DNA of 61,976 nt, counting the filler. It is 5 parts of 5 records of this genome, joined end to end, with 100 filler letters (N's around TTAATTAATTAA, not from the genome) between each part and the next. Parts side by side here need not be neighbours in the genome. Positions count along the whole stretch, not along the records: positions 26,153 to 43,697 come from SRR20825010_71; 4 more parts are not named here. One strand, given 5' to 3'. The notes under the pieces were generated by a model. The model made no database searches. It was not told where the DNA came from and worked only from the letters and a program-made list of their open reading frames with translations. Shown here one piece after another: positions 2,717-58,275 of this stretch. How positions within the stretch are numbered: the first letter of the stretch is position 1; every line of letters begins with the position of its first letter. Both the position numbers and the translations under genes were made by a program.

Positions 2717-2775
2717 GATTTTTGGAATAGCTAATAATGATTTGCAATGAATGATTGTTGCGAATTAAAGATTTC

Positions 2776-2856
2776 AAATCCCGACGCTCAGCGTCGAAAT
2801 AAGTTAAATTTGTTTCGTTTAAATACTTCGTTGGCTTGCCTCGAGGTAGTTGATTT
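2776..2856. repeat. Two-hairpin intergenic repeat (REP/IS200-IS605-end-like)
   Basis: CGACGC-TCA-GCGTCG hairpin plus ATACTTCGTTGGCTTGCCTCGAGGTAGTTGA; related copies near 293-317, 16311-16390 and 25911-25944. Confidence 0.6.
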
Positions 2857-2868
2857 TTAAATCGAAAA

Positions 2869-3735: not shown

Positions 3736-3758
3736 GCCAAATCTTACTATCAGGAAAT

Positions 3759-5429: not shown

Positions 5430-5431
5430 TT

Positions 5432-6433: not shown

Positions 6434-6436
6434 GTT

Positions 6437-7492: not shown

Positions 7493-8432
7493 CACAAAAA
7501 TTATCAGCATAAAAGAGATTTCTGTTAGCGGAAAAATGATTTTTTTAGCTATTTTGGGACTTTTTTCATTTTCAGTAGTAAAAGCACAAGACACAGAATC
7601 GATAGAAAAGGCTAAGCAAAAAGCTTTAAATGAATCTGTTGAGTATACTTATAAAGGAAATGAAGTGCTTGAAGAGAGTTCTGATGCTATTGCAGCAGAA
7701 ATGGAGTATAGAAAAGCAGTTTCTAAAAGTTCGGACAATGCAAAAGCAAAGTACAACTTAGGAAATGTGTATTATAAGCAAGAAAGTATGGGAGAGGCCT
7801 TTATGCGTTATAAAGAGGCTGGAACTACTGCAAAAACTAAAGAAGAAAAGCATAGTGCATACCATAATTTAGGGAATGTATTTATGAAAAATAAAGAATA
7901 TCAAAAGGCGGTAGAGGCTTATAAAGAAGCGTTGAGAAATGATCCAGCGGATGAAGAAACTCGCTATAACTTAGCATTGGCAAAAGAAATGCTAAAGAAA
8001 CAGCAAGACGAAAATAAGAATAATCAGGATCAAAATAAAGACGATAAGCAAGACGAGAATAAAGATAACCAAGATCAGAATCAGGATAATAAAGACAATC
8101 AGGATAAGAAAGATGGGGATGAGGGAGATGAAAAAAAAGACGATCAAGGGAAGGAAGATGATAAAAATAATGAAGGCGACAATAAGGACGAGCAAGGCGA
8201 GAATCCTGAAGATCAAAAACAAGACGAAGGAAAGAACGATAAGCAAGATCAAAAGCAGAATCCTGGAGATAAGCCTCAAGAGCAACAGCAACAACCTCGT
8301 CCTAATCAATTATCACCTCAGCAGGTAAAAAATATTTTGGAGGCGATGAACAACGAAGAAAAGAAAGTTCAAGAAAAAATAAATGCTGAAAAAGTAAAAG
8401 GAGCACCAGTAAAATCTGAAAAAGATTGGTAA
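7482..8432 (+). CDS. batC: BatC, TPR protein with Q/D/N/K low-complexity tail; start codon uncertain
   Basis: TPR motifs YNLGNVYY and YHNLGNVFM, ETRYNLALA, low-complexity linker, ends EKDW. Confidence 0.88.
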   Translation: MKSNTKIISIKEISVSGKMIFLAILGLFSFSVVKAQDTESIEKAKQKALNESVEYTYKGNEVLEESSDAIAAEMEYRKAVSKSSDNAKAKYNLGNVYYKQESMGEAFMRYKEAGTTAKTKEEKHSAYHNLGNVFMKNKEYQKAVEAYKEALRNDPADEETRYNLALAKEMLKKQQDENKNNQDQNKDDKQDENKDNQDQNQDNKDNQDKKDGDEGDEKKDDQGKEDDKNNEGDNKDEQGENPEDQKQDEGKNDKQDQKQNPGDKPQEQQQQPRPNQLSPQQVKNILEAMNNEEKKVQEKINAEKVKGAPVKSEKDW

Positions 8433-8435
8433 AAA

Positions 8436-10223
8436 ATGAAAATTAAATTTTTAATACTTACTTTTTTTATATGTTTCTCGGGAGTTTTATTCTCTCAAGA
8501 GGAAGAAGTGCAGTTTGAGGCCAATGCTAGTAAGAAAAAACTTGGCGTAAATGAGCGCTTACGTGTAGAATTTAGCATGAATAAGGATGGCGATAATTTT
8601 GTGCCACCTTCTTTTGAAGGTTTTAGAGTTTTAATGGGACCAAATCAATCTGTTAGTCATTCTTGGGTAAATGGAAAACGTTCTTTTTCAAAATCGTATT
8701 CTTACGTTTTAACACCTTTGTCTAAAGGGAATTTTACAATTCAGCAGGCTAAAGTTGAAATAGAAGGAAATACGTATAAAACAACGCCTATAAAAATAGA
8801 GGTAACCGAAGCGGTTAACGACCCGAATGCGCCGCCTTCTGCCGATGATATTGCAGATGATAATTTGCATTTAGTAGCTGAGGTATCTAATGGGAGTCCG
8901 TATTTAAATGAGGCAGTAAGTGTGGTTTACAAATTGTATGTGAGTCCAAGCATTAATGTTTCTAATTTTCTTCCGAAGGCAAATCCAACGTATAATAATT
9001 TTTGGTCTCAAGATATAAAAGTTACCAGATTTCAGGTAGAGAATGGTTTGTACGAAGGAAAACAATACCGTTATGTGGTTTTAAAACGTGTGGTATTATA
9101 TCCTCAAAAAACGGGCTCTTTAGAAATTGAACCGCTCTCATTGGATGTAACTGTAGATGTTCCAACTAATAGGAGAGATGTTTTTGGCGGAAGATTGTTT
9201 ACGCAAACTAATAAAACAGTTACTGCTGGGCAACGTATTATTAAAGTAAAACCACTTCCAGAGGCTGGAAAACCAGCAGGATTTACAGGTGCTGTTGGAC
9301 AATTTGATTTTGATGTAATTACTTCAAAATCCGATTTAAAAGCGAACGAATCTTTAACTGCTAAAATTCAGGTAACTGGAAAAGGAAACTTAAAACTTTT
9401 TAACTTGCCAAAGCTTACGCTTCCAAGTTCGTTGGAGGTTTATGAGCCTGAACATGAAGAAAATGTTTCTACGAATTTATCTGGAATGAGCGGAAAAATT
9501 TCCGACAATTATACTATTGTTCCGCAATTCAAAGGGAAGTATCCTATTCCTGGCGTAGCATTCTCTTATTTTGATCCTAAAGAAGAGAAATACAAAACAG
9601 TTACTTCACAACAATCCCTAGTAAATGTTTATGAAGGACCGTCCAGTGCTGCGGTAGCAAATGAAGCGACCAGAGATAGTGATGCTATCAATAAGCAACC
9701 TATAGCTACCTTGGGCGACCAATTTAGATTTATAAAATTAGACACCAATTTATATGCTAAAGAAGCTTCTGTTTTCTTCGGTTCTATTTTGTATTATATA
9801 TTGCTACTAGTTCCTTTACTTTTAATTCCTATTGCTATTTTAATAGGGAAGAAAAGAGCAGCTATGGCTGGAGATGTAGTTGGAAATAGAGTTAGAAAGG
9901 CTAATAAGTTGGCTAAGAAATATTTATCAGAAGCAAAAAGAAATCTTGGTAATAAAGAGGCATTCTACGAATCTTTAGAAAGAGCGCTACATAATTACTT
10001 ACGAGCAAAATTGAAGTTGGTAACGTCTGAATTTAGTAAAGAAAAAATAAGCGAATTACTACTTTCTAAAAATGTAGAAAAGCAGGGGGTAGATAATTTT
10101 ATAGCATTACTAAAAAGTTGTGAATTGGCAAGGTATTCTCCAAGTACAACAGCAGAAATGCAAAGCGATTACAATAAAGCAGCCGAAGTTATTTCGTTAA
10201 TCGATAAACAGTTTAAATCATGA
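8436..10223 (+). CDS. batD: BatD
   Basis: Signal peptide, FTGAVGQF, GKGNLKL, FSYFDP, C-terminal TM and CELARYSP. Confidence 0.9.
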   Translation: MKIKFLILTFFICFSGVLFSQEEEVQFEANASKKKLGVNERLRVEFSMNKDGDNFVPPSFEGFRVLMGPNQSVSHSWVNGKRSFSKSYSYVLTPLSKGNFTIQQAKVEIEGNTYKTTPIKIEVTEAVNDPNAPPSADDIADDNLHLVAEVSNGSPYLNEAVSVVYKLYVSPSINVSNFLPKANPTYNNFWSQDIKVTRFQVENGLYEGKQYRYVVLKRVVLYPQKTGSLEIEPLSLDVTVDVPTNRRDVFGGRLFTQTNKTVTAGQRIIKVKPLPEAGKPAGFTGAVGQFDFDVITSKSDLKANESLTAKIQVTGKGNLKLFNLPKLTLPSSLEVYEPEHEENVSTNLSGMSGKISDNYTIVPQFKGKYPIPGVAFSYFDPKEEKYKTVTSQQSLVNVYEGPSSAAVANEATRDSDAINKQPIATLGDQFRFIKLDTNLYAKEASVFFGSILYYILLLVPLLLIPIAILIGKKRAAMAGDVVGNRVRKANKLAKKYLSEAKRNLGNKEAFYESLERALHNYLRAKLKLVTSEFSKEKISELLLSKNVEKQGVDNFIALLKSCELARYSPSTTAEMQSDYNKAAEVISLIDKQFKS

Positions 10224-11002
10224 TGAAGGCTTGTAAAAGTTTACTTAGCGGATTTGTTTTTACGTTGTTTTTATTGACAGCTTATGTTGGGGTAGCCCAA
10301 AATGAAGCGGTGTTTAAGCAAGGTAACGATTTATACAACGAGGGGAAATATCAAAAAGCAATAGAAAAATATCTTGAGGTATCTCAAAGTGGAGTTCATT
10401 CTGCTGCTCTTTATTATAATTTAGCCAATGGATATTATAAATTAAATCAAATAGCACCAAGTATCTATTATTATGAAAAAGCTCTCTTGCTTTCTCCTAA
10501 TGATGCAGATATTAAAAATAATTTGCACTTTGCAGAAAACATGACGGTAGATGCTATTGATGTGATGCCGCAAACTGGTTTAGCAAAATTAGCCACCAAT
10601 ATAATCTTTAAATTATCATACAATACATGGGCTATTCTGTCTATTTTATTTATGGTGTTGTTTGTTGTTGGTTTCTTACTGTATTACTTTGCTAGCTACC
10701 ATACAAGAAAGCGGATTTATTTTGCGCTAAGTATTTTATTCCTGTTATTTTCTATAGCTAGTTATGGTTTTTCATATTACCAATACGGAGTAGAAAACAA
10801 TAGAAAACCTGCCATAATTTTTGCTAAAGAAACTTCTGTAATGTCAGAACCTAATATGGGCAGCACCGAGGTATTTTTATTGCATGAAGGGACTAAAGTT
10901 AATATTTTGGAAACCTTAGGAGGTTGGAAAAAGATTAAGCTAGCAGATGGTAAAATAGGTTGGCTACCCGATACTGATTTAAAAGAAATTAAAGACTTTT
11001 AA
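10220..11002 (+). CDS. batE: BatE, TPR plus C-terminal SH3-like domain
   Basis: TPR YYNLANGYY, two TMs, LHEGTKV...GKIGWL. Confidence 0.9.
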   Translation: MMKACKSLLSGFVFTLFLLTAYVGVAQNEAVFKQGNDLYNEGKYQKAIEKYLEVSQSGVHSAALYYNLANGYYKLNQIAPSIYYYEKALLLSPNDADIKNNLHFAENMTVDAIDVMPQTGLAKLATNIIFKLSYNTWAILSILFMVLFVVGFLLYYFASYHTRKRIYFALSILFLLFSIASYGFSYYQYGVENNRKPAIIFAKETSVMSEPNMGSTEVFLLHEGTKVNILETLGGWKKIKLADGKIGWLPDTDLKEIKDF

Positions 11003-37554: not shown

Positions 37555-38883
37555 CTACGTTTCCTTCAAACTAGCTTGCACACGTCGCTGCGCTGTGACC
37601 CATACGTAGATCGGCACACCTGCCAGCAATAGAAGCAGCGCCCAATACACGCTGTCTCGTCCTGAGCCTGCAATCACCCACACAGCGTAGGCGAAACCTA
37701 TCGCCGCAACTACCGTATCGCGCAAATGCCCAACCTTTGAGGCTGATGGGTCGCGCACTGCAAACAACCACGCAGACGCGGCCGACATCGCCACGGGTAA
37801 AATTGCCGTTATAGTCGCCAGCAAAATGAGGAACTCAAACGCGACGATCAGTCCATCAACAAAATTCAGTGCAAGCGAGATAGATGCCAACACACCACCA
37901 ATAATGAAGGATATAGCTGGCGTGCCATATCGTGTCAGCTTGCCGAACGGGCTAGGGAATAAACCATCAAGCGCCGCCGCCATGGGCATCTGGCCAACCG
38001 CAAAAACATTTGCGTTCACGCCGCTACCCGTCGCGACCAAGGCAATCAACGCCACAATAGTCGCGCCCATTGGGCCAACAAGAGCTGAAGCGGCATCCGC
38101 AAGCGGTGCTGTTGATTGCATCAACTGCTCGGCAGGCAATAACCCAAACGCAGCCATGGTCACCGCAAAATAGAGCACTACCACAGCCAGTACGCCAGCC
38201 ATCGTTGCGCGTGGAATGGTACGCGCCGGGTCTTGCACCTCGCCAGCGGGTATGGTGCAAACTTCAAAGCCAATAAATGCCCACATGGCCAAAGCACTGG
38301 CTGCCGCTGTGGCGGAGAGCGGACTTTGGGGCTCAATCATGCCGGCGTAATTCGCGCTTTCAACACTCACCAGCCCAAACAAGGCCAAAAACAACAGCGG
38401 CAGGAACTTTGCCAGGCTGGTTATAAGCTGCAGAGCGCTGGAGCCTCGTACACTGCGGCAGTTGATAATTACCAGCCCCCATATAAGAGCGAGGCCACAA
38501 GCAAGAGAGGCGTTTGGCGATGATCGAAGCGTGGGGAAAAACTCAGCCAAGTATCCGATGAAAGCGACAGTCACCGCAGCGACAGAAACCCACACGGAGA
38601 CCCAATACCCCCACGCCATCAAAAAACCAGTGAAGTCACCAAACCCCGCCCTTGTATATGCATAAGGACCACCACTGACGGTAACGCGCCGGGCCATATA
38701 GGCGAGCGAGAACGCAAGCGCCACAGTGCCACCACCGGTTACCAGCCAGCTCAGGAGTGCATATTTACCAAAAGGCGCCAGAACTGTTGGCAACATGAAG
38801 ACACCGGAGCCCACCATCATGCCGATAGACAGGCCCCACGTGCGCCAAAACCCCATGACGCGCTTTTTCTCTTCCACCAGCAC
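37555..38883 (-). CDS. APC-family amino acid/polyamine permease (AdiC/ArcD-like)
   Basis: MVGSGVFMLP, GGPYAY, WGYW, WAFIGFE, about 12 TMs; GGGGGAG RBS before GTG. Confidence 0.9.
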   Translation of the reverse strand: MLVEEKKRVMGFWRTWGLSIGMMVGSGVFMLPTVLAPFGKYALLSWLVTGGGTVALAFSLAYMARRVTVSGGPYAYTRAGFGDFTGFLMAWGYWVSVWVSVAAVTVAFIGYLAEFFPTLRSSPNASLACGLALIWGLVIINCRSVRGSSALQLITSLAKFLPLLFLALFGLVSVESANYAGMIEPQSPLSATAAASALAMWAFIGFEVCTIPAGEVQDPARTIPRATMAGVLAVVVLYFAVTMAAFGLLPAEQLMQSTAPLADAASALVGPMGATIVALIALVATGSGVNANVFAVGQMPMAAALDGLFPSPFGKLTRYGTPAISFIIGGVLASISLALNFVDGLIVAFEFLILLATITAILPVAMSAASAWLFAVRDPSASKVGHLRDTVVAAIGFAYAVWVIAGSGRDSVYWALLLLLAGVPIYVWVTAQRRVQASLKET

Positions 38884-38944
38884 TTCTCCCCCACTGATTT
38901 AAACCGAGCCTAGCGCAAGGGGATGAAATGTCACGGAAATAGAG

Positions 38945-39007
38945 TGTCCCATATTGAGACATCAAAAACTGTATCATTTCAGGACATCTCTGTCCCCGCC
39001 TGATACA
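38945..39007. promoter_or_regulatory. Three tandem TGT-N11-ACA sites (candidate enhancer-binding-protein UAS)
   Basis: TGTCCCATATTGAGACA (38945), TGTATCATTTCAGGACA (38970), TGTCCCCGCCTGATACA (38991). Confidence 0.6.
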
Positions 39008-39058
39008 GTCAAGTGTTCATCATTCCCTATCTATCTGAAATCACTTAATATTTATTTC

Positions 39059-39074
39059 TGGCACACCCGTTGCG
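39059..39074 (+). promoter_or_regulatory. Sigma-54 -24/-12 promoter
   Basis: TGGCAC-ACCCG-TTGC with exact GG-N10-GC spacing; predicted TSS about 39085. Confidence 0.75.
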
Positions 39075-39084
39075 AATACAAAAA

Positions 39085-39245
39085 CGAACCTGGTGCTCCG
39101 GCTGCCACCTGGCACAGGTTTCCAAGTTTAAGGGTTGCATCTAGCTGCCACTGCCTGCGACCTGACGAAATCGAAGTCCGACTACACCTCAATGCCCCAC
39201 CTCAATCCGCTGGTGTAGTCGGCTTCGACCCATTTTCCTTTCCCC
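39085..39245 (+). ncRNA. Candidate sigma-54-dependent three-hairpin small RNA (or structured leader)
   Basis: Stems 39087-39120, 39132-39163 and 39171-39228; GCTGCCAC in loops 1 and 2, TGCCCCAC in loop 3; pyrimidine tail. Confidence 0.6.
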
Positions 39246-39289
39246 AACACCAGATACCGTTTAGTCATAAGCGCAGATCCGACTAAGGA

Positions 39290-40204
39290 ATGCAGTTTAT
39301 GAGCCCCGAATTTATTCAGGATTTTAAAGCGCCGTACGGCAAAGCTGAAAGCTTAAGCCCGCTAATCACCCGCGTGCTGTGCGAAAACCCAAGCCCGTAC
39401 ACTTACACTGGCACCGGGACATATCTTGTAGGCAACAACTCCAGCCTCGCCGTGATTGACCCAGGCCCGATGATGCCTGAACACGGCGAAGCAATATTGC
39501 GGGCGGTGGGCGACCGATCCATCAGCCATATTCTTGTAACTCATACCCACATTGACCACTCGCCCCTGTCAGCCTGGCTAAGTGAGCGCACTGGTGCACC
39601 AATATATGCGTTCAGCACACACGGCGCAGGCCGTAAGGGCGGGCTGGATGGTGAAGATGTTGAAGCCGGTGCAGATACCCACTTCAAACCAGACTATCTG
39701 ATCGCGGACGGCCATGTTTTCACCGGGAACGGATGGACACTGCGCGCAATTCACACGCCGGGCCATACCGCAAACCATCTTTGTTTCATGCTTGAAGAGG
39801 AAAAAGCGCTGTTTGTGGGTGACCACATCATGGGGTGGGCCACGACGGTTATCGCACCACCTGACGGAGACATGCGCGCCTATTTCGCCAGTCTGAAACG
39901 GGTGACAAAGGAGGCTCCGTCAGTTTTATACCCTACCCATGGCCCAAAAATTGAAAACGCAGCCCCTTTTGTGCGCGGTATAATAACGCACCGACGCATG
40001 CGTGAAGGGCAAATCCTCAAACATCTTGAAGATGGCCCCATGGATATCAATATGATGGTCAGCCGCATGTATAAGGATGTGGATGTAAGGCTTCATCCGG
40101 CCGCCGCGCGGTCCGTACTTGCCCATCTTATTGCGCTCGTGGACGAAGGCCGGGTCAAGGCGTCAAAGCCGCCATCGTTGTCAGCATTGTTTGAACTTGG
40201 CTGA
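39290..40204 (+). CDS. MBL-fold hydrolase (LACTB2-like) with C-terminal winged helix
   Basis: NPSPYTYTGT, THTHIDH, HTPGHTANH, GDHIMGW, PTHG. Confidence 0.88.
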   Translation: MQFMSPEFIQDFKAPYGKAESLSPLITRVLCENPSPYTYTGTGTYLVGNNSSLAVIDPGPMMPEHGEAILRAVGDRSISHILVTHTHIDHSPLSAWLSERTGAPIYAFSTHGAGRKGGLDGEDVEAGADTHFKPDYLIADGHVFTGNGWTLRAIHTPGHTANHLCFMLEEEKALFVGDHIMGWATTVIAPPDGDMRAYFASLKRVTKEAPSVLYPTHGPKIENAAPFVRGIITHRRMREGQILKHLEDGPMDINMMVSRMYKDVDVRLHPAAARSVLAHLIALVDEGRVKASKPPSLSALFELG

Positions 40205-44338: not shown

Positions 44339-47300
44339 ATGAAACATTTTAAATTTAAAAAATTACCGTTAGTAATGAGTCTGTTCATTTTTGGGCTGAT
44401 TCATGCGCAACAAGAAATCACTGTTTCTGGAACAGTGCAAGATGGGACAACTCCTATGCCAGGTGTCAATGTATTTTTACAAAATGAAAATACAGGAACT
44501 ACCACAGATTTTGATGGTAATTATACGCTTAGCGGAGTAAGTCCAGACGCTACACTGGTATTTAGTTATATCGGTTATAAAACGAAGGAAATTCCTATTA
44601 ACAATAAAACAACCATTAATGTAACAATGGAAATTGATGCACAGTCTCTGGAAGATGTAGTGGTGGTTGGTTATGGTACTCAAAACAGAGATGATGTTAC
44701 TGGAGCTATTTCTTCAATTGACTCAGAAGCTATTGAAAGTGTCCCAGTGGCAACAGCAGATCAAGCTTTACAAGGGAGAGCTCCTGGTGTAAATGTAGTT
44801 AACAGTGGTGCTCCAGGGAACGCCCCTGTAGTAAGAATTCGTGGTTTGGGAACCCCAAATAATAATACGCCACTTTATGTAATTGATGGAATTATTTCTT
44901 CTGGTATGGGAAATTTAAACCCAAACGATATAAAATCCATTCAGGTTTTAAAGGATGCTGCTACAACTGCTGTATATGGTTCTAAAGGATCCAATGGGGT
45001 TATTTTAATAACCACCAAGAGTGGTAATGCTAGTGAAAAGGCAACATTAACTTTTGATACCTATACAGGGGTAAACTTCATTGATGCTCGTTATGATATT
45101 TTAAATACAGATCAATACATTCAATACGCCAGTGAAATTGGTCCTACTCCAGAAAGAATTTCTAATCCTGAGTATGCAGACATGATTGCTAATAACACCA
45201 ATTGGCAGGATGCATTATTTAGAAATGGATTAATGCAAAACTATAACATAGGCCTTTCAGGCGGAAACAAAAACAGTAATTACAGATTTTCAGGAGGGTA
45301 TTTAGGTCAAGAAGGTGCTGTAGTAGAAACTGAATATGAGCGCTTTAATTTTAGAGCGAATAGTAATTTTACCTTTGGAAACTTTAAAATAGGTGAAACT
45401 ATGGGCTTGTCATTCGACAAACAAAACCCAGAGCGAGACAGCGGTGGACGCTCAATTTTTGAGCATGCTATTAAAATTGCTCCATATATTCCTATCTACA
45501 ACCCAAATAACCTAGGTGGATTTCAGGGACCTAGCAGTTCTATAGACGGTCAGGATGCCGAGAATCCAGTGAGAGCACAAACTATAGGGAGTGTAGATAA
45601 CAAATCTATTGATATTGTAGGAAGTATTTTTGCTGAATATGAACTTTTTAACTCGCTTACTTTTCGGACGCAAGTTGGTTTAGATTACAGCAACTATAAA
45701 AATAGCTCTTTTATTCCTTCCTATAATGATGATGAAACATCCACCAATAGCACCAACTTTGCTCAAATTATAAAAAATACTGGAATATATCAGTCGCTTA
45801 CATACACCAATAGTCTTACATATAAAAGCACTTTTGCAGAGGTTCATAACTTGGAATTACTCGTTTTATCAGAACGTCAAGAAATTAAAAACGAAAATGT
45901 AAATGCAAGGAGTACCAATGAAATCTCAGACAATGTGGATCAATTATCTACTAGTGGAGTTGATTTAAGTTCCGCTTCATCCGAGTATTTAAGAATTGGT
46001 TATTTAGGACGTATAAATTATAATTATGACCGTAAATATTTATTTGCTGCCTCCATACGTAGAGATGCATCATCTAGATTTGGAGCTAATAACCGTTGGG
46101 GATGGTTTCCTTCGTTTTCAGCAGGATGGAATATTGGTAAAGAAGCATTTATGGGAAATACTCCATTTAGCAACCTAAAGTTAAGAGGAAGTTGGGGAAA
46201 AACTGGAAATGATAATATTGGAGATTATTTATATAGCTCTACACTCCTTACTAATTTTATTTACCCTATTGGAGGAAGTGCTGTTCAAGGAACAACCGCT
46301 AGTGGTCTAGCAAATCCAGACCTTAAATGGGAAGAAACAACCATGAGAAATTTAGGGTTGGATCTAGGACTTAATAATGACCAATTTACAGTATCGTTTG
46401 AGTACTTTAATAATAAAAGTGAAGACCTCCTTATTAACAGACCTTTGCCTTTATCTCAAGGTTTTAATAATCCTGATGTTACAGAAAATGTGGGTTCTGT
46501 TAGAACAAAAGGTATCGAATTTAATGTAGGGTATAACGACTATAATGGAGATTTTACTTGGTCGGCAAACCTTAATTTTAGTTCCACTAAGAACGAAGTA
46601 ATATCCTTAGGAGAAGGTGGAGAAAATAGAGAATTAACTGGTGGAAATTTTGAAGGCGAAAACATTTCTAGAATTACAGTAGGAGAACCGTTATTCTATT
46701 TCTATGGATTACAAACCGATGGTATCTATCAAAATGATGCCGAAGTTGCTGAAGTTTTAACAGCAAATCCAGGTCAAAGTGTTGTTCAACCAGGAGATAT
46801 TCGGTTTATAGATTTAAATGGAGATGGGATGATTAATGCAGATGATAAAACTAAAATAGGAGATCCGTATCCAGATTTTATGCTCGGATTAAACCTAACC
46901 GCGGCCTACAAAAATTTTGACTTTAATTTATTCATCAACGGTTCTTATGGAAACGATGTGTACAATACCAATATTTATGACCTACAAGGAATGACACGCT
47001 TATTTAATGCCGGTACAGAAGTACTTAACAGATGGACTGGACCTGGAACTTCTAATACCATCCCACGTGCCCTTGGTGCCGATCAAAATGCGGGAGCATC
47101 AGATAGGTATGTAGAAGATGGATCTTATACCCGTTTAAGAAACTTGGTGATAGGGTACACCATTCCAACTAGTGTTTTTAATGATGCTATTTCAAAATTT
47201 AGAATTTATGTAAGCGGACAAAATTTAATCACTATTACCGACTATTCTGGATTGGATCCTGAGATTGGACAGTATTCTCTAAATAATCAAAATACGAGAA

Positions 47301-47380
47301 CACAATTTGAAATAGGAATTGATCGCGGAAATTACCCGCAACCAAAATCAGTTTTATTAGGTCTTCAACTTGAATTTTAA
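44339..47380 (+). CDS. SusC/RagA TonB-dependent transporter
   Basis: VVVVGYGTQ, PLYVIDG, VLKDAATTAVYGSKGSNGVILITTK, NPDLKWE, YVEDGSY, C-terminal Phe. Confidence 0.96.
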   Translation: MKHFKFKKLPLVMSLFIFGLIHAQQEITVSGTVQDGTTPMPGVNVFLQNENTGTTTDFDGNYTLSGVSPDATLVFSYIGYKTKEIPINNKTTINVTMEIDAQSLEDVVVVGYGTQNRDDVTGAISSIDSEAIESVPVATADQALQGRAPGVNVVNSGAPGNAPVVRIRGLGTPNNNTPLYVIDGIISSGMGNLNPNDIKSIQVLKDAATTAVYGSKGSNGVILITTKSGNASEKATLTFDTYTGVNFIDARYDILNTDQYIQYASEIGPTPERISNPEYADMIANNTNWQDALFRNGLMQNYNIGLSGGNKNSNYRFSGGYLGQEGAVVETEYERFNFRANSNFTFGNFKIGETMGLSFDKQNPERDSGGRSIFEHAIKIAPYIPIYNPNNLGGFQGPSSSIDGQDAENPVRAQTIGSVDNKSIDIVGSIFAEYELFNSLTFRTQVGLDYSNYKNSSFIPSYNDDETSTNSTNFAQIIKNTGIYQSLTYTNSLTYKSTFAEVHNLELLVLSERQEIKNENVNARSTNEISDNVDQLSTSGVDLSSASSEYLRIGYLGRINYNYDRKYLFAASIRRDASSRFGANNRWGWFPSFSAGWNIGKEAFMGNTPFSNLKLRGSWGKTGNDNIGDYLYSSTLLTNFIYPIGGSAVQGTTASGLANPDLKWEETTMRNLGLDLGLNNDQFTVSFEYFNNKSEDLLINRPLPLSQGFNNPDVTENVGSVRTKGIEFNVGYNDYNGDFTWSANLNFSSTKNEVISLGEGGENRELTGGNFEGENISRITVGEPLFYFYGLQTDGIYQNDAEVAEVLTANPGQSVVQPGDIRFIDLNGDGMINADDKTKIGDPYPDFMLGLNLTAAYKNFDFNLFINGSYGNDVYNTNIYDLQGMTRLFNAGTEVLNRWTGPGTSNTIPRALGADQNAGASDRYVEDGSYTRLRNLVIGYTIPTSVFNDAISKFRIYVSGQNLITITDYSGLDPEIGQYSLNNQNTRTQFEIGIDRGNYPQPKSVLLGLQLEF

Positions 47381-47390
47381 AAAAAATATT

Positions 47391-48857
47391 ATGAATACTA
47401 TAAAATTAATTATTGCATCATTTTCAATAGGACTGCTATTATATTCTTGTGATACGGATGGCTTAGAATTAGAAAATCCAACCGAATTATCTCCAGAAAC
47501 CTATTTTGAAAATGAAAACCAAGTAAGATCAGCAGTAAATGCTGTATATGCAAACTTACAAACTATTGGAATGTATAGTAGAAATTACTATTATATCATG
47601 GACAATATGGCGCATGATAATGAAGGAAATCCTCAATTGGAGGCTAATAAAAGACTCTTTTTAAACTTTTCTTTTGATTCAAGTTCTGAACTTGTAAATC
47701 AATTATGGGATAGTTCCTTTAGAGGAATCAATAAGGCTAACTTCGTTATTGGAAATGAAGAAAAAATAAATGCAATTCCAACGTCTTTTATGAGTCAAGC
47801 CTTAAAAGATAAATACATTGGCGAAGCTAAATTTTTAAGAGCCTTGTATTACTTTAATTTAGTGAGCAGATATGGGGGAGTTCCGTTAATTACTAATGTT
47901 CCAGAAAATGGACAAGGATTTCCTAGAAGTTCTGCAGACGAGGTATACAATCAAATTATTTCAGATTTAAAAGATGCATCGCAAACTTTATTATCTAAAG
48001 AGGCAGAAGAAAGCGGTAGAGCCACTAAAGGAGCAGCATACGCGCTACTTGGAAGAGTATATTTATACAGAAAAAATTATACTGAAGCACTTAATGCATT
48101 CAATAATATCTATGGAGTGTATGCTTTAACAGATGAATACTTTGATAATTTTAGAGAAGAAACCGAACATAATTCTGAATCTATATTTGCTGTAGAATTT
48201 GATGATGATATGGGGAACAATGCATTTTGGAACTCTACAGTCTCTGGAGAAGGACCAAATGAAGCGAGCCTAAGAGGACAATCTTATGGAATGTTTGATT
48301 GGTTCAATGCGTATCCGTCTGATGATCTTCTGGATGAATTTGAAGCTGGAGATCCTCGTTTTCAAGCTAGTTTCTATGTGGTTGGAGATGAATATGCTGG
48401 CGGAACAATTTCAGAAATTAGCTTGGGGAGAAGGGCTGGATGGAGAAAATACCAAAATTATTATAAGGAAGCCAATGAAGATTTACAATCTGGAATAAAT
48501 TTCGGTATTATTCGCTATGCCGATGTACTTTTAATGATGGCCGAAGCTGCCAATGAAGTAGTAGATCAACCAACAGCAATTGGTTATATAAACGAAGTTA
48601 GAGATCGTGTTAGTATGCCCTTATTACCAGATAATTTATCAAAAAATGAAGTTTTTGAAGCAATCATTCATGAACGAAAAGTAGAATTGGCTGGAGAGCA
48701 AGTTCGTTTTGCCGATTTGGTTCGTTGGGGGCTTGCATCACAAGAATTAAGTCAATATGGATTTCAGGAAGGAATACATGAATTATTACCAATTCCTGAA
48801 GCAGAACTTAATTCAAATGAAAATATAAATAGCGAAGACCAGAATCCTGGATACTAA
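47391..48857 (+). CDS. SusD/RagB lipoprotein
   Basis: Lipobox LYSC; GEAKFLRALYYF, IRYADVLLM, ERKVELAGE, LPIP...QNPGY. Confidence 0.95.
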   Translation: MNTIKLIIASFSIGLLLYSCDTDGLELENPTELSPETYFENENQVRSAVNAVYANLQTIGMYSRNYYYIMDNMAHDNEGNPQLEANKRLFLNFSFDSSSELVNQLWDSSFRGINKANFVIGNEEKINAIPTSFMSQALKDKYIGEAKFLRALYYFNLVSRYGGVPLITNVPENGQGFPRSSADEVYNQIISDLKDASQTLLSKEAEESGRATKGAAYALLGRVYLYRKNYTEALNAFNNIYGVYALTDEYFDNFREETEHNSESIFAVEFDDDMGNNAFWNSTVSGEGPNEASLRGQSYGMFDWFNAYPSDDLLDEFEAGDPRFQASFYVVGDEYAGGTISEISLGRRAGWRKYQNYYKEANEDLQSGINFGIIRYADVLLMMAEAANEVVDQPTAIGYINEVRDRVSMPLLPDNLSKNEVFEAIIHERKVELAGEQVRFADLVRWGLASQELSQYGFQEGIHELLPIPEAELNSNENINSEDQNPGY

Positions 48858-48962
48858 ATAGCACAAAATATAAATAATCAAAGTAATTACTTATAATAAA
48901 TTACATAAAAACAGCCTTAAAACTGGATTATATAAATTGATTAGTTTGTTTAGTTAGCTGAT

Positions 48963-49008
48963 AGAAATAGAGCTATTTTTACTTTAGTAGCTCTATTTCT
49001 TTCTATTT
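48963..49008 (+). terminator. Hairpin between susD and GH115 (terminator/attenuator)
   Basis: AGAAATAGAGCTA / TAGCTCTATTTCT 13-bp stem plus T-rich tail. Confidence 0.65.
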
Positions 49009-49042
49009 TAAATAGATCTAGAAACCAAAAGAATTTAAATTC

Positions 49043-51898
49043 ATGAGAATTATTAATAAAAATACACTTCTTTTATTGCTCTTTTCTTTACTTATTTCAA
49101 AAAATCTTAGGTCTCAAGAAAAATACGTAACAACTACAAATACTAAAGATGCTTTTGCTATTGCAGAAAATCAAAATGTAGCTCCTATTCTATATAGTAG
49201 CCAAGATTATCAAGGTGTACAAAAGGTTATTCTGAACCTTCAAAGCGATCTTGAAAAAGTTACAGGCATCCCTCCAAAGCTTTATACCGATGTTAGCAAA
49301 GTAAAAGACCTCCCTATTATTATTGGTACTATTAATAAGAGTCCGATTATAGATCAATTAATAAAGAATAAACTCATTGATGAGAATAGCTTGAGTGGAA
49401 AATGGGAAAAATTCATTATAAAAACACTAAAAAACCCTTTTCCAGGAATAAAAGAAGCAGTTGTTATTGCTGGCTCTGATAAAAGAGGTACTATTTACGG
49501 TATATACGATTTATGCAAACAAATGGGCGTTTCTCCATGGCATTTTTGGGCAGATGTTCCTGTAAAAAAATCCGATAAATTATATGTAATACCAGGGGTT
49601 CATACCATGAACGAACCTAAAGTTAAATATCGTGGAATTTTTATTAATGATGAAGCTCCAGCGTTAGCTGGCTGGGTACATGAAAATTATGGCTCTTTTA
49701 ATGCTGAATTCTACGAAAAAGTGTTTGAACTTATATTAAGATTGAAAGGAAATTACTTGTGGCCTGCTATGTGGGGAAGAATGTTTTATGTAGACGATCC
49801 TAAAAATAAAGAACTTGCCAATCTATATGGTATTGTAATGGGTACCTCTCACCATGAACCCTTAACAAGAGCGCATGCAGAATGGAAAAAATTTGGGACT
49901 GGAGCATGGGACTATCGTACCAATGCAGAGAACTTAGCTGCATTTTGGAAAGCAGGCATGGAAAGAATGGAAAATACAGAAACCATTGTTTCTATTGGTA
50001 TGCGAGGGGATGGAGACGAACCTATGACAGATGGAACGGCTATAGAACTTTTAGAAACTATTGTAAAAAAACAGCGGGAAATTATTAAGAATGTTACTCA
50101 AAAAAACATTCAAGAAACCCCACAATTATGGGCATTATATAAAGAAGTACAAGCTTATTACGATAAAGGGATGCGTGTTCCCGAAGATGTAACATTATTA
50201 CTTTGTGATGACAATTGGGGAAATATTAGAAAACTACCTAATCCATCTGATGCTCCCCGAAAAGGAGGATATGGTGTGTATTATCATTTTGATTATGTTG
50301 GAGATCCTAGAAATTACAAATGGATAAATACCAACCAAATTGAACGGACATGGGAGCAAATGCATTTGGCATATAAACATGGTGTAAAGGATATTTGGAT
50401 TGTAAATGTTGGCGATATCAAACCAATGGAATTCCCCATTTCATTTTTTTTAGATTATGCATGGAATCCTGAACAATGGAAAGCTAAAGATCTTCCTAAA
50501 TATTATTTGCAATGGAGTAGTGATACTTTTGGAGCTAAGTATGCTGAAGAAATAGCTGATATCCTAATGAAATACACAAAATATAACGCCAGAAGAAAGC
50601 CTGAACTACTTTCTTCAGAAACCTATAGCCTCCTTAATTACCAAGAAGCGGAAACTATACAAATGGAATTTGATTCCTTAACAGCAAAAGCAAAAAATAG
50701 CTATAAAAAAATACCCACGGCATATAAAGACGCGTATTATCAATTGGTATTATTTCCCGTTTTAGCGAGTGCTAATCTTAACAAATTGTATTTTGAAACC
50801 GCTAAGAATAAGCTTTACACTACGCAAGGAAGAGCCCTTGCCAATCAAACAATTAAGAATGTAGAAAATCTATTTGCTAATGATTCTATCCTTACCGCAT
50901 ATTATCATAAAAAACTTGCAGCTGGTAAATGGAATCATATGATGTCTCAAACTCATATTGGCTATACGTCTTGGCAAGAGCCAAAAAATAATTCTATTCC
51001 AAAAACCAACAGCATTATCCTTAAAGAAAAGGCCGAAATGGGAATTTCGGTTGAAGGTACTCATAAATGGTACCCTAAAAGCACTAATGCATTAGAACTA
51101 CCAGCATACTTGTCTCTTGATGATGAAAAACACTTTATTGAAATATTCAACAGGGGAAAAGAAAACTTTACTTATAGTATCAAAACAATTAATAATTGGT
51201 TGCAGTTTTCTCAAAAGAAAGGTACTATCAAAAATCAAAAAAGAATATGGGTTAGCCTTAACCAAAAAGAACTTCCTCCTGGTAAAAACGAAACCTATTT
51301 TTTTGTAGAAAAAGGCAAAGAACAGGTTAAAATTAAAGTAAAAATTAATAATCCCAAGCAAAATAAAATTACTGGTTTTATAGAAAACGACGGTTATATT
51401 TCTATGGAAGCAAAAAACTATACCCGTTCTAAAACTATGGAAGATTTTGAATGGATTACAGTTCCAAATCTAGGAAAAACCTCATCGGGGGTTACTACAT
51501 TTCCCGTTACCAAAAGCATTAAAAAAATAACTGATGCTTCTCCAAGATTAGAATTCGATTTTCATTTATTTACTTCTGGAGCTATAAAAATTCATGCCTA
51601 CTTCTCCCCTACGCTAAATTACAACACTAATGTTGGTCATTATTACGGCATTGGCATTGATAATCAACCCCCAGAAATTGTTGACTTTCATTTAAATGAC
51701 ACCAAATCGAATTGGAACCAATTAGTAGCAAACAATAGTAAGATTATAACAACCTCTCTAACAGCCACTAATGGAAATCACACCCTTAAATATTACATGA
51801 AAAGTAGTGGATTAGTATTACAAAAAATAGTAATAGAAACAACATCTATAAAAGAAAGTTATTTAGGTCCCAAAGAAAGCTTCGAAATAAAAAAATAA
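49043..51898 (+). CDS. Glycoside hydrolase family 115 (xylan alpha-1,2-glucuronidase-like)
   Basis: GSDKRGTIYG, YRGIFINDE, NYLWPAMW, GTSHHEP, GMRGDGD, DDNWG, YYHFDYVG, NVGDIKP. Confidence 0.93.
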   Translation: MRIINKNTLLLLLFSLLISKNLRSQEKYVTTTNTKDAFAIAENQNVAPILYSSQDYQGVQKVILNLQSDLEKVTGIPPKLYTDVSKVKDLPIIIGTINKSPIIDQLIKNKLIDENSLSGKWEKFIIKTLKNPFPGIKEAVVIAGSDKRGTIYGIYDLCKQMGVSPWHFWADVPVKKSDKLYVIPGVHTMNEPKVKYRGIFINDEAPALAGWVHENYGSFNAEFYEKVFELILRLKGNYLWPAMWGRMFYVDDPKNKELANLYGIVMGTSHHEPLTRAHAEWKKFGTGAWDYRTNAENLAAFWKAGMERMENTETIVSIGMRGDGDEPMTDGTAIELLETIVKKQREIIKNVTQKNIQETPQLWALYKEVQAYYDKGMRVPEDVTLLLCDDNWGNIRKLPNPSDAPRKGGYGVYYHFDYVGDPRNYKWINTNQIERTWEQMHLAYKHGVKDIWIVNVGDIKPMEFPISFFLDYAWNPEQWKAKDLPKYYLQWSSDTFGAKYAEEIADILMKYTKYNARRKPELLSSETYSLLNYQEAETIQMEFDSLTAKAKNSYKKIPTAYKDAYYQLVLFPVLASANLNKLYFETAKNKLYTTQGRALANQTIKNVENLFANDSILTAYYHKKLAAGKWNHMMSQTHIGYTSWQEPKNNSIPKTNSIILKEKAEMGISVEGTHKWYPKSTNALELPAYLSLDDEKHFIEIFNRGKENFTYSIKTINNWLQFSQKKGTIKNQKRIWVSLNQKELPPGKNETYFFVEKGKEQVKIKVKINNPKQNKITGFIENDGYISMEAKNYTRSKTMEDFEWITVPNLGKTSSGVTTFPVTKSIKKITDASPRLEFDFHLFTSGAIKIHAYFSPTLNYNTNVGHYYGIGIDNQPPEIVDFHLNDTKSNWNQLVANNSKIITTSLTATNGNHTLKYYMKSSGLVLQKIVIETTSIKESYLGPKESFEIKK

Positions 51899-51920
51899 TC
51901 ATTTTTTCAGTCATAAAAAC

Positions 51921-52749
51921 ATGCGATACACACAAACATTTATAAAATTATCTTATCTCATTATCATCGTCTTTTTAGGATGTAAAACATCAAATAAAAA
52001 AGAATCAGAAAATAAAGATACCGCCCAAAAAGAAATTATAAAAAAAGAAGAGGCAATTCAAAATCCTTTGATAACACATATGTACACTGCCGACCCATCT
52101 GCGCATGTGTTTAACGGAAAACTATACATATATCCTTCGCATGATATTGAATCTACAGTAACTAACGATGAAGAAGGGAATCATTTTAATATGAAAGATT
52201 ATCATGTCTTTTCTATGGATAGCATTCCTGGAGAAGTAATAGATTATGGAAAAGCATTAGATGTAAAGCAAGTGGCGTGGGCAAAAAAACAACTATGGGC
52301 ACCAGATGCAGCAGAAAAAAACGGCACCTATTATTTATATTTTCCAGCTAAAGATTCTGAAAATATATTTAGAATTGGCGTGGCTACTAGCAAAAAACCC
52401 ACTGGTCCTTTTACTCCCCTTCCTAATCCAATTCCTGGTAGTTTTAGTATCGACCCAAGTGTCTTTAAAGATAATGATGGAAGTTATTATATGTATTTTG
52501 GAGGGATTATGGGCGGTCAATTACAACGCTGGACTACTGGAGTTTACCTTCCTAAAGATGAATATCCAGCCAATGACAGTGCTGCTTTAAGTCCAAAAAT
52601 AGCAAAACTAGCTACAGACATGGTTCATTTTGAAACACCTCCAAAAGATGTTCAAATTCTTGATAAAGAAGGAAATCCAATACGCACAGGCGACCATGAC
52701 AGACGATTTTTTGAAGCTGCATGGATGCATAAATACCAAGGAAAATATT
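51921..52749 (+). CDS. GH43 beta-xylosidase/arabinofuranosidase (GH43_1-like lipoprotein), cut by contig end
   Basis: YTADPSAH, YPSHD, WAPDAA, SIDP, YFGG, RRFFEA. Confidence 0.9.
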
Positions 52750-52849
52750 NNNNNNNNNNNNNNNNNNNNNNNNNNNNNNNNNNNNNNNNNNNNTTAATTA
52801 ATTAANNNNNNNNNNNNNNNNNNNNNNNNNNNNNNNNNNNNNNNNNNNN
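52750..52849. other. Artificial contig linker
   Basis: N-TTAATTAATTAA-N; GC shift across it. Confidence 0.97.
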
Positions 52850-55902: not shown

Positions 55903-57111
55903 ATGAAGCAGAGTGTCATCAGCGGTATCCGCTTGGCAAGCATGTGCGAGAATTCCGGATCCTACGGGCTGACAGAGGATGCAGCTATCGCGATCAGCGA
56001 TGGTAAGATCGCCTGGTCCGGTGTGTCGAATGAATTGCCCGACGCATTTCTCGATTGGAAACGTGTCGATTTCGACGGGCGGCTTGCGACGCCAGCGCTG
56101 GTGGATTGCCATACGCACCTTGTTTTCGGAGGCAATCGGGCAAGAGAGTTCGAGATGCGGCTCGAGGGTGCGAGCTACGAGGAAGTGGCGCGCGCGGGCG
56201 GCGGCATTGTTTCCACCGTCGCGGCGACCCGTGCGATGAGTGAGGACGCGCTGGTCGAAGATGCGCTGAAGCGGCTTGACGCGCTTTTGGCCGAAGGTGT
56301 CGCAACAGTTGAAGTGAAGTCGGGCTACGGGCTCGCCATTCAAGATGAATTAAAGATGCTGCGTGCTGCGCGCCGTCTGGCAACGCTGCGCCCGGTGCGG
56401 ATCAGGACGAGCTATCTTGCCGCCCATGCGGTGCCGGCGGAATATCGCGGCAAGGAAGACGCTTATATCGATGAGGTCGTGCTTCCGGGCATGGAGATGG
56501 CCCAGGCCGAGGGACTGGCTGATGCGGTTGACGGGTTCTGCGAAGGGATCGCGTTTTCGCCGGAGCAGATGGCCCGGGTGTTCGATAAGGCGCGGGCGCT
56601 TGGTCTGCCGGTAAAACTACATGCCGAGCAACTTTCCAACCTGGGTGGAGCGAGACTGGCGGCATCCTACGGTGCGCTGTCAGCGGACCATCTGGAATAT
56701 CTCGACGAAGAGGGCGTTGCGGCCATGGCCGCGGCGGGGACGGTGGCGGTGTTGCTGCCGGGCGCTTTCTATACTTTGCGCGAGACGCAGCATCCTCCGC
56801 TTGCCGCGCTCAGGAAGCATGGGGTGCGGATTGCGGTTGCCACCGACTGCAATCCTGGCTCCTCGCCGCTCGCCTCACTGCTTTTGACCATCAACATGGC
56901 TTGCACGCTGTTCCGCATGACGCCGGAAGAAGCGCTGGCCGGGGCGACGCGTGAAGCGGCACGCGCTCTGGGGCTCGCCGATGAGATTGGCACGATCGAG
57001 GCCGGCAAGCGCGCCGAGATCGCCATCTGGGATGTCGAGCATCCCGCCGAGCTTGCCTATCGCATCGGTTTCAATCCGCTGCATCGCCTTGTTTCAGGAG
57101 ATCATGCATGA
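55903..57111 (+). CDS. hutI: Imidazolonepropionase
   Basis: [43 protein letters not shown]. Confidence 0.96.
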
Positions 57112-57587
57112 CGCTTGTTCTGTCGCCCGGTGCGGTGACGATCCGGGATCTGGAACATATCTGGCGCGATGGCACACCTGTACGCCTCGACAAGGGCTGC
57201 CATGCTGGCATCGAGGCGGCAGCGGAGCGGATAGATCAGATCGCGCGCGGCAATGCGGCTGTCTATGGCGTCAATACCGGTTTCGGAAAACTCGCCAGCG
57301 TGAGCATCCCGCCGCACGATGTGGAGACGCTTCAGCGCAATCTCATTCTGTCCCATTGCTGCGGCGTCGGTGCGCCGCTTGATGAAAGCATCGTGCGGCT
57401 GATCATGTCGCTCAAGCTTCTGTCTCTCGGACGTGGAGCCTCCGGTGTCCGCATGGAGGTGGTGAAACTGATCGAAGAGATGCTGGCGCGGGGTGTCGTG
57501 CCGGTGATTCCGGAAAAGGGCTCGGTGGGCGCCTCGGGCGATCTGGCGCCGCTTGCCCACATGGCCGCTGCCATGATGGGCGAGGGC
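57108..57587 (+). CDS. hutH: Histidine ammonia-lyase (5' part, cut by contig end)
   Basis: [21 protein letters not shown]-forming GASGDLAPL. Confidence 0.95.
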
Positions 57588-57687
57588 NNNNNNNNNNNNN
57601 NNNNNNNNNNNNNNNNNNNNNNNNNNNNNNNTTAATTAATTAANNNNNNNNNNNNNNNNNNNNNNNNNNNNNNNNNNNNNNNNNNNN
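57588..57687. other. Artificial contig linker
   Basis: N-TTAATTAATTAA-N. Confidence 0.97.
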
Positions 57688-58275
57688 TCGATCAACCATG
57701 TGGTCTGTCACGGTATTCCCGGCGACAAGAAGCTTGGCAATGGCGACATCATGAATATTGATGTCACGGTGATTCTTGATGGTTGGTATGGCGATACGTC
57801 ACGCATGTATATTGCGGGCACGCCAAAGGTTATGGCGCAACGCCTTGTCGATGTGACCTATGAGTCGCTTTGGCGCGGGATCAATGCGGTTAAGCCGGGT
57901 GCGACCCTTGGCGATATTGGTCATGCCATTCAGTCCTATGCCGAAAGCGAACGGTTTTCGGTTGTGCGTGATTTCTGTGGTCACGGCCTTGGTCAGGTGT
58001 TTCATGATGCGCCAAATATCTTGCATTACGGCAAGCCGGGCGAAGGGCTTGTTCTGGAACCGGGCATGATCTTTACGATTGAACCCATGATCAATCAGGG
58101 CACCTATGCGTGTAAAATTTTGCCCGATGGCTGGACAGCTGTGACGCGAGACCGCAAACTGTCGGCACAGTTTGAACATTCGCTGGCCGTGACGGAAGAC
58201 GGGTTTGAAGTTTTCACCCGATCCCCGGCCGGTCTGGACAAACCGCCCTATGACATCAGCGCGGCAGCCGAGTAA
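57688..58275 (+). CDS. map: Type I methionine aminopeptidase (5'-truncated)
   Basis: SINHVVCHGIP, GDTSRM, FCGHG, TIEPMIN, SAQFEH. Confidence 0.95.
   Translation, partial: SINHVVCHGIPGDKKLGNGDIMNIDVTVILDGWYGDTSRMYIAGTPKVMAQRLVDVTYESLWRGINAVKPGATLGDIGHAIQSYAESERFSVVRDFCGHGLGQVFHDAPNILHYGKPGEGLVLEPGMIFTIEPMINQGTYACKILPDGWTAVTRDRKLSAQFEHSLAVTEDGFEVFTRSPAGLDKPPYDISAAAE

Follow-up and report, generated by a model that had tools for sequence, protein, structure and literature searches.

Enhancer-dependent small RNAs (sRNAs) stand at the head of major bacterial decision circuits, such as those for quorum sensing (Qrr), envelope synthesis (GlmY/GlmZ), carbon choice (CrcZ) and the nitrogen response (NrsZ); few are, to our knowledge, known in Alphaproteobacteria. 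In the Qrr system of Vibrio, the NtrC-family regulator LuxO recognizes the box TTGCA-N3-TGCAA, controls its own gene and has sigma-54-dependent sibling sRNAs, which pair in an Hfq-dependent manner, as direct targets. NrsZ of Pseudomonas combines an RpoN-type promoter and NtrC-family activation with one to six hairpin modules sharing one loop motif, ACAGGCAG (PMC4253122). For glmY/glmZ in Yersinia, a second report describes two homologous RNA genes, each with three activator sites, IHF sites and sigma-54 dependence, gives the sites of GlrR (QseF) as TGTC-N10-GACA, 18 bp in length, and quotes for glmY the IHF consensus WATCARNNNNTTR (PMC3045617). The alphaproteobacterial MmgR (alpha-r8) is NtrC-induced and listed with an RpoN-type promoter motif in a review (PMC7143759). 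Here, we describe RNA-1, a predicted RNA of about 155 nt encoded in the window, that is, in the whole 61,976-nucleotide stretch of alphaproteobacterial DNA that was analyzed. RNA-1 is a new, previously uncatalogued family of an already known kind. The reading we favor, with a probability of roughly 0.55, is that of a trans-acting, probably Hfq-assisted, multi-seed sRNA of Kordiimonas and its relatives.

The RNA-1 gene and its promoter

RNA-1 lies in an intergenic gap flanked by the genes of an amino-acid permease (37555-38883, minus strand) and of an MBL-fold hydrolase (probable start 39299). A sequence-only reading of this gap had proposed an enhancer-controlled sRNA or sponge, possibly within an undescribed circuit, on the basis of three 17-bp TGT-N11-ACA sites, an AT-rich stretch, a TGGCAC-N5-TTGC promoter with exact spacing, three stem-loops of which the first two share a loop motif, and a pyrimidine tail. 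Each of these parts is present, two of the activator sites as listed and the third now placed at 38991-39007. The proposal as a whole is supported by the conserved promoter layout, by hairpins that covary around fixed loops, and by two loci at other places in the genome, one of a sister RNA and one of a candidate activator. The features of the gap and of the gene behind it are as follows.

38945-38961, plus strand: upstream activator site 1, TGTCCCATATTGAGACA, a 17-bp palindrome (22.9 bits on the 75-site matrix)
38970-38986, plus strand: upstream activator site 2, TGTATCATTTCAGGACA (15.6 bits on the same matrix)
38991-39007, plus strand: upstream activator site 3, TGTCCCCGCCTGATACA, the weakest (10.1 bits on the same matrix)
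About 39025-39057, plus strand: AT-rich spacer with an IHF-like box, from an alignment of 25 promoters (A2)
39059-39073, plus strand: predicted sigma-54 promoter TGGCAC-N5-TTGC (-24/-12), TGGCACACCCGTTGC, with a predicted start near 39085
39085-39242, plus strand: RNA-1, with predicted ends (model R1)
39087-39120, plus strand: hairpin 1, with hexaloop CUGCCA at 39102-39107 closed by an apical mini-helix, inside the invariant CUCCGGCUGCCACC
39133-39162, plus strand: hairpin 2, with hexaloop CUGCCA at 39145-39150
39171-39228, plus strand: hairpin 3, a long stem and probable terminator hairpin, with the C-rich, anti-Shine-Dalgarno-like loop UGCCCCACCUCAAUCCGC at 39193-39210
39229-39245, plus strand: pyrimidine tail CCCAUUUUCCUUUCCCC with a weak U tract, read from the sequence
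39258-39271, plus strand: box CGTTTAGTCATAAG between RNA-1 and the MBL start, found by eye in homologous stretches
39299-40204, plus strand: MBL-fold hydrolase with a BLACT_WH domain (Pfam PF00753 and PF17778)

The region upstream of RNA-1 has the layout of a sigma-54 promoter under enhancer control, with exact -24/-12 spacing, upstream sites at conserved distances and an IHF-like box. TGGCA and TG are invariant in all 25 aligned promoters, and in most of the 33 homologous promoters scanned the activator sites stand at about -114, -89 and -68 from TGGCA. A total of 75 homologous sites, from which the weight matrix was built, yield the palindromic consensus TGTCTCA-AAT-TGAGACA, with the general form TGTYYCA-N3-TGRRACA. 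In 157 kb of other DNA from G001, the nearest genome (100% identity over 401 nt by BLAST), this matrix finds one site of at least 12 bits and none of at least 15 bits. G001 encodes rpoN and holds 23 strict matches to TGGCAC-N5-TTGC, of which only the one at RNA-1 has TGT-N11-ACA sites, three of them, in the 220 bases upstream. The box in the spacer, TATCTATCTGAAAT at about 39028-39041 in the window, has the family form YAA-N4-TTGAWW and is conserved in the 25 aligned promoters; by analogy with the consensus quoted for glmY (PMC3045617), it may be an IHF site. In BLAST alignments, similarity to relatives starts at the sigma-54 promoter and stops just past hairpin 3. One further site of this type, a lone TGGTTCATTTTGAAACA at 52621-52637 of the window (18.4 bits on the site matrix), lies inside a GH43 gene with no sigma-54 promoter nearby and is probably a chance match.

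RNA-1 folds into hairpins that carry short conserved sequences unpaired at their tips. The covariance model R1, built from 15 sequences, matches the window at 39081-39242 with 150.7 bits, and folding of the 205-nt stretch after the predicted start, a check proposed with the sequence-only reading, gave z = -2.9 relative to shuffles. The homologues likewise bore out the expectation of a kept loop motif on covarying stems. Among 32 sequences aligned to R1, changes on both sides occur in 7/7 modelled pairs of hairpin 1 and in 14/17 pairs of hairpin 3, so that 21 of the 24 modelled base pairs show compensatory changes overall. Pairing cells amount to 93.9% in this alignment, which was fitted to R1 and thereby favors the pairing score, as against 77% after shuffling (a value of 93.9% is reached in 0/500 shuffles) and 28-50% with slid partners. 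An independent MAFFT alignment gives the same picture for hairpin 3, with 11/17 pairs. The stem of hairpin 2 lies outside R1, the alignment being out of register there, and was read sequence by sequence; its stems differ by clade yet always pair (GGUUGCA/UGCGACC, GGAUCGCA/UGUGAUCC and GGGUCUUC/GAAGACCC). Several RNA-1 genes have UUUGCCUGAU in hairpin 2.

The loop motif GCTGCCAC occurs at 39101-39108 and 39144-39151, and in the folds of 29 RNAs its core, CUGCCA, is wholly unpaired in 52/52 copies. These copies are enclosed by a median of 12 pairs, compared with 5 when the flanks are shuffled. The first closing pair is canonical in 47 of the 52 copies (G-C in 44) and the second in 50 (G-C 26, A-U 20, C-G 2, G-U 1, U-A 1). 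Of these RNAs, 19 contain two copies of the hexaloop, 8 a single copy and 2 three copies. In hairpin 3, apart from one position, the loop is invariant in 15/15 sequences. In the same region, TGCCCCAC lies at 39193-39200 and CACCTCAAT at both 39185-39193 and 39198-39206. The doubling of CACCTCAAT pointed out earlier thus holds for the window, but it is clade-specific: the first copy lies partly in the stem and only the second, within UGCCCCACCUCAAUCCGC, is conserved. In a sister clade, the hairpin 3 loop reads CCCCCUUUCCCAUUCCACCG and the hairpin is followed by a clean U tract, GGUUUUUAUUUUGC. A simple terminator scan, which accepts loops of 3-8 nt only, did not call hairpin 3 and its tail.

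Covariation and promoter conservation together establish, at the level of sequence comparison, a conserved structured RNA gene behind a conserved, predicted enhancer-dependent promoter. The contrary reading, that the conserved stretch is regulatory DNA only or encodes a small protein, can point to a 110-codon open reading frame (ORF) with a TTG start that spans the region (38954-39286). However, this ORF has no Pfam match, its homologues differ by insertions and deletions of one to three bases, and the substitutions are compensatory within helices, which leaves that reading scarcely credible.

R1 finds exactly one copy in 30/32 genomes of the genus Kordiimonas and matches 26/151 genomes in a sample of the order, all of the same family; these genome counts overstate the statistical weight, as kin are not independent. 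By BLAST, the stretch is present in 15/25 genomes of the genus and in 0/16 genomes of other genera of the order. In three genomes missed by R1 (one of the same genus, one of genus g18 and one of genus g24), the sites and the promoter are retained and a diverged RNA precedes the same MBL gene; in the g24 genome, this RNA forms three hairpins, each with GCUGCCAC. In a genome-collection scan for the promoter plus GGCTGCCACC, R1 matches 7/80 loci among the matches listed, all in Kordiimonas or metagenome-assembled genomes; K. gwangyangensis and K. lacus are among the carriers. A metagenome scan for two UUGCCUGAG loops was uninformative, with a sigma-54 promoter upstream in 0/80 loci among the matches listed.

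Rfam 15 gives no match in the whole window at gathering thresholds. On 38850-39350, with E up to 10, it returns only two chance-level matches on the opposite strand, and homologues give nothing relevant. Searches of the full-text literature on Kordiimonas sRNA and on alphaproteobacterial sigma-54-dependent sRNAs turned up no description of RNA-1.

Sister RNAs and a candidate activator

The sequence-only reading had seen no activator gene on the contig, and a Pfam search indeed detects a sigma-54 activator domain in 0/53 ORFs of the window. G001 encodes seven proteins with this domain: FlbD, NtrC, NtrX, PspF, a LuxO-like protein, a PrsR-like protein and an unnamed 482-aa response regulator. A whole-genome search of G001 for the site pattern found a second good locus near 274,360, that of the sister RNA. 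The loci outside the window that bear on the circuit are the following.

G001:C1:1186391-1187836 (L019, L205:7392-8840), strand not given: orphan NtrC-family response regulator, next to murI
G001:C1:274150-274400 (loci L241 and L278), minus strand: sister RNA whose two loops read UUUUGCCUGAG; an acyltransferase-like gene lies downstream
G026:C24:3800-4380 (L514), strand not given: RNA from another bacterial family of the order, in which two UUAGACACCUU loops represent a third motif, under a promoter of the same type
G001:C1:2241865-2243256 (L022, L204:7863-9260), minus strand: LuxO-like protein gene, from the Vibrio LuxO model
Around C1:1226999 and C1:1736536 in G001 (L034, L035), strand not given: two other sigma-54 promoters with repeated TGTTCG-N4-CGNACA

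The sister locus repeats the layout of RNA-1, with three palindrome-like sites, an AT-rich spacer with an IHF-like box, a sigma-54 promoter (TGGCATGTCGCTTGC) and then a short hairpin RNA, whose loops read UUUGCCUGAG. R2, a sequence-only model of the promoter region derived from the promoter alignment, finds this second full-length promoter, one per genome, across the family and also in genera without RNA-1; the sister RNA is more widespread than RNA-1. All 20 loci read contain one to three UGCCUGA-loop hairpins (two in 18 loci), arranged as repeated hairpin units with a GUUUUGAGUA-like linker in front, and most end in a strong terminator, a GC-rich hairpin with 6-8 U. The core YUGCCW is common to RNA-1 and the sister RNA, and the RNA of one genome is a hybrid that holds both CAGCUGCCACUG and UUUGCCUGA. 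At the level of the order, full-length R2 matches also occur in two other families. One of them has RNAs of the sister type; the other has one RNA with AUGCCUGAGG loops and another, with two UUAGACACCUU loops, behind the same site type. Class-wide, the sister-RNA pattern matched 2/401 genomes, namely G001 itself and a glnK-type promoter without activator sites; the RNA family was therefore not found outside the order in this sample.

The sites shared by RNA-1, the sister RNA and the orphan regulator mark this regulator as the likely activator of both RNAs. In G001, its own promoter region contains TGTCCTGAAATGATACA, which scores 15.6 bits, lies 76 nt before the ATG and is not followed by a sigma-54 promoter. 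In 21/21 genomes from six genera, the regulator gene is preceded at a distance of 43-80 nt by this sequence or a close variant of it. Among the seven enhancer-binding protein loci of G001, it is the only one with a matching site. Full-length sites were found only at small-RNA genes, plus the putative autoregulatory site at the regulator. In most of six genomes read, the gene has glutamate racemase (murI) behind it and divergent pntAB in front. Public records name the protein merely a sigma-54-dependent regulator, and relatives with ~57% identity occur in other marine alphaproteobacteria. TacA was considered as a name for it and set aside, the literature having given no binding motif.

The other regulators of interest differ in their sites. 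The LuxO-like protein reaches 595 bits with the Vibrio LuxO model, whose cut-off is 800 (next best family 389), and no site of at least 10 bits on the 75-site matrix lies near its locus. A 166-codon ORF without a Pfam match overlaps the end of the LuxO-like gene, and rpoN and hpf lie 5 kb away. The PrsR-like protein is associated with different 16-bp sites at the two other sigma-54 promoters listed above, one of which is divergent from its own gene; these TGTTCG-N4-CGNACA promoters probably form a separate enhancer regulon. On the PrsR model TIGR02915, the orphan regulator reaches 350 bits; the two scores obtained with this model, 350 and 375 bits, are both below the cut-off of 502.6.

Relation to described systems and mode of action

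RNA-1 resembles NrsZ in its RpoN-type promoter, its candidate NtrC-family regulator and its modules with a shared loop motif in variable number (one to six in NrsZ, one to three in RNA-1). Neither sequence nor covariance models show similarity to NrsZ, with no Rfam family matching on either strand; the loops of RNA-1 are CUGCCA and, in the sister RNA, UGCCUG (UGCCUGAG) rather than ACAGGCAG, its candidate activator is not NtrC, its upstream sites differ and it belongs to a different bacterial class. CUGCCA (39102-39107 in the window) and UGCCUG resemble CUGCCUGU, the complement of the NrsZ motif ACAGGCAG; this resemblance is probably a coincidence.

With GlmY/GlmZ of Enterobacteriaceae, RNA-1 and its sister share the arrangement of two sRNA genes, each with sigma-54, three sites and IHF, under one response regulator, as predicted for the present pair. 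However, the site here is the 17-bp TGTYYCA-N3-TGRRACA rather than the 18-bp GlrR site, and there is no covariance-model match. The gene glmS was tried as a GlmZ-like target and rejected; in Kordiimonas it lies directly behind glmU, and its upstream region lacks complementarity. Because motifs, sites and models mismatch, RNA-1 belongs to neither the NrsZ nor the GlmY/GlmZ family.

The likeness to Qrr/LuxO lies in an NtrC-family regulator with sigma-54-dependent sibling sRNAs and its own gene as targets (predicted here) and in Hfq-dependent pairing (presumed here). The Qrr sequences and the LuxO box differ from those at RNA-1, and the LuxO-like locus of Kordiimonas has no RNA-1-type site. Like MmgR / alpha-r8 (RF00519 'suhB'), RNA-1 is an alphaproteobacterial sRNA with an RpoN-type motif and predicted induction by an enhancer-binding protein, but it does not match that family, and the CUCCC anti-Shine-Dalgarno core of MmgR is absent from it. 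This core is also absent from the one sister RNA, in G107, that gives a sub-threshold RF00519 score of 28.1 bits (gathering score 41); among the 29 loci searched, no other homologue reaches E = 0.1-1. The regulon of the PEP-CTERM box (PrsR) is set apart by its sites. Motif 1 of that box has 17 nt and ends in TTTACA (PMC1569441), whereas the sites here end in GRRACA.

For RNA-1 itself, base pairing is favored as the mode of action because long invariant stretches (14 and 18 nt) surround the loops, because the hairpin 3 loop is anti-Shine-Dalgarno-like, because the paralogues differ in loop motif, and because Hfq is encoded (5/5 genomes) and CsrA (PF02599) is not (0/5). The loop divergence among paralogues fits diversifying pairing seeds better than a single protein site. 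In the proposed circuit, an unspecified signal would lead to phosphorylation of the orphan regulator, which would bind the three 17-bp palindromes, with the DNA bent at the IHF-like box. RNA polymerase with sigma-54 would bind TGGCAC-N5-TTGC, and RNA-1 and the sister RNA would be activated. The regulator may also control its own gene through the one site in its sigma-70-type promoter region. The exposed loops would be repeated seeds for pairing with mRNAs, probably assisted by Hfq. Such pairing may change how these mRNAs are translated or how stable they are, which would place their regulon under indirect control of the regulator alone, in the manner of LuxO with Qrr and of GlrR with GlmY/GlmZ.

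The same loops can be read as a protein decoy, in which an RNA-binding protein is titrated by the G-C-closed CUGCCA hairpins and, in the sister RNA, by the UUGCCUG loops, as CsrB/RsmZ titrate CsrA and CrcZ titrates Hfq/Crc. The motif always sits at a hairpin tip on a short helix that stays paired as its sequence varies, the copy number of the motif ranges from one to three in RNA-1, and the sister RNA consists of repeated units with the GUUUUGAGUA-like linker. The YUGCCW core common to both RNAs and the hybrids with both loop types would fit a single binding protein, and the regulator seems to target small-RNA genes only. GacA-Rsm and CbrB-CrcZ are precedents for regulators with small-RNA genes as targets. 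However, the loops lack GGA and CsrA is missing from the five genomes, so that the protein would have to be novel. Moreover, the invariant 14- and 18-nt stretches exceed the usual need of a protein site, the loop motif of one paralogue, from another family, is unrelated, and no candidate protein gene is linked to the loci. We regard a decoy function as unlikely. Decidedly unlikely, too, is a Csr/Rsm-like cascade in a CsrA-less lineage, topped by the regulator and the two RNAs, in which the G-C-closed hexaloops and the UUGCCUG loops would be docking sites for a not-yet-recognized RNA-binding protein.

Alternatively, RNA-1 could be a cis-acting leader: the sigma-54 promoter would serve the MBL gene, and tandem hairpins bound by a protein or ligand would gate passage through hairpin 3. 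The position of RNA-1 speaks for a leader, as does that of the sister RNA, which also precedes a co-oriented gene, the acyltransferase-like one. At every RNA-1 locus read, the same co-oriented MBL gene lies directly downstream, while the upstream neighbor varies. By contrast, ordinary terminators are present in the form of GGUUUUUAUUUUGC after hairpin 3 in the sister clade and of the GC-rich hairpin with 6-8 U in the sister RNA, and no alternative pairing of hairpin 2 with the terminator was seen. The genes downstream of RNA-1 and of the sister RNA are unrelated, and in 7/10 genomes checked the MBL gene is present without the element, directly behind the preceding gene. The box at 39258-39271, which recurs by eye as GGTTTAGGCCTAAG and CAGGTTACCCATTGG in the same interval of relatives, may serve the MBL gene either as a promoter of its own or as part of a leader. 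The MBL start is probably the ATG at 39299, with AAGGA at 39285-39289. Taken together, a leader function appears quite improbable. Further candidates, namely an ANTAR-type two-hairpin leader, a guanidine-II-like tandem hairpin, pairing with the tRNA-Ala(GGC) anticodon loop and a promoter mimic for sigma-54, were left as unsupported.

Several observations weigh against a trans-acting, pairing sRNA. No RNA runs covering 38800-39500 were listed, and no transcript support was obtained; in one run of uncertain type, a 181-nt contig covers just 38878-39058, and nothing came from three further runs, which is uninformative either way. A search for targets found GTGGCAGCYRG seven times in G001 (two of these being the gene itself), compared with 19 times in the control. 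The motif CTCAGGCAAA occurs 27 times in G001 versus once in the control, nearly always inside ORFs, and GATTGAGGTGGGG matches are mostly coding, as in a conserved ...VIEVG... stretch of one protein; such loop-complement matches inside ORFs look like codon bias rather than targets. A G-C-closed hexaloop on a covarying mini-helix also fits a protein-binding hairpin. In the window's clade, only CCCAUUUUCCUUUC follows hairpin 3, and read-through into the MBL gene is possible; a promoter scan called no sigma-70-like promoter between RNA-1 and that gene in the window, and their constant adjacency may mean a link in cis. Finally, the shared sites are the only basis for assigning the activator. Co-occurrence does not discriminate, because both candidate regulators are present in nearly all genomes of the family (43/45 and 41/45). 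Unconstrained duplex folding against translation starts was dropped, having returned meaningless long-range pairings.

Other parts of the window and meaning for the family

Elsewhere in the window, positions 44339-52805 encode a TonB-dependent receptor with a carboxypeptidase-regulatory-like domain, a SusD/RagB-family protein, GH115 and GH43. This is the layout of Bacteroidota-style polysaccharide utilization, yet the window is alphaproteobacterial. A complete BatA-BatD-type operon at 1715-11002 comprises a MoxR ATPase, DUF58, a 556-aa unnamed ORF, BatA, a second VWA-domain protein, a TPR protein, BatD and a further TPR protein. At 57108-58275, a fragment of an aromatic-amino-acid lyase covers only profile positions 2-152 of 466 and is followed by an M24 peptidase that covers only profile positions 61-208. 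A 168-aa ORF at 26105-26611 matches only positions 2-40 of 328 of the PPDK N-terminal profile. The fragments at these two places may reflect rearrangement, decay or an assembly join.

RNA-1 would add a new family to the RNA databases, one in which sibling RNAs with diverging loop motifs stand behind a fixed promoter. The candidate circuit drawn from these comparisons comprises an orphan regulator, its putative binding site, predicted autoregulation and two to three sibling RNAs with defined loop motifs, and it would span at least three families of marine bacteria.

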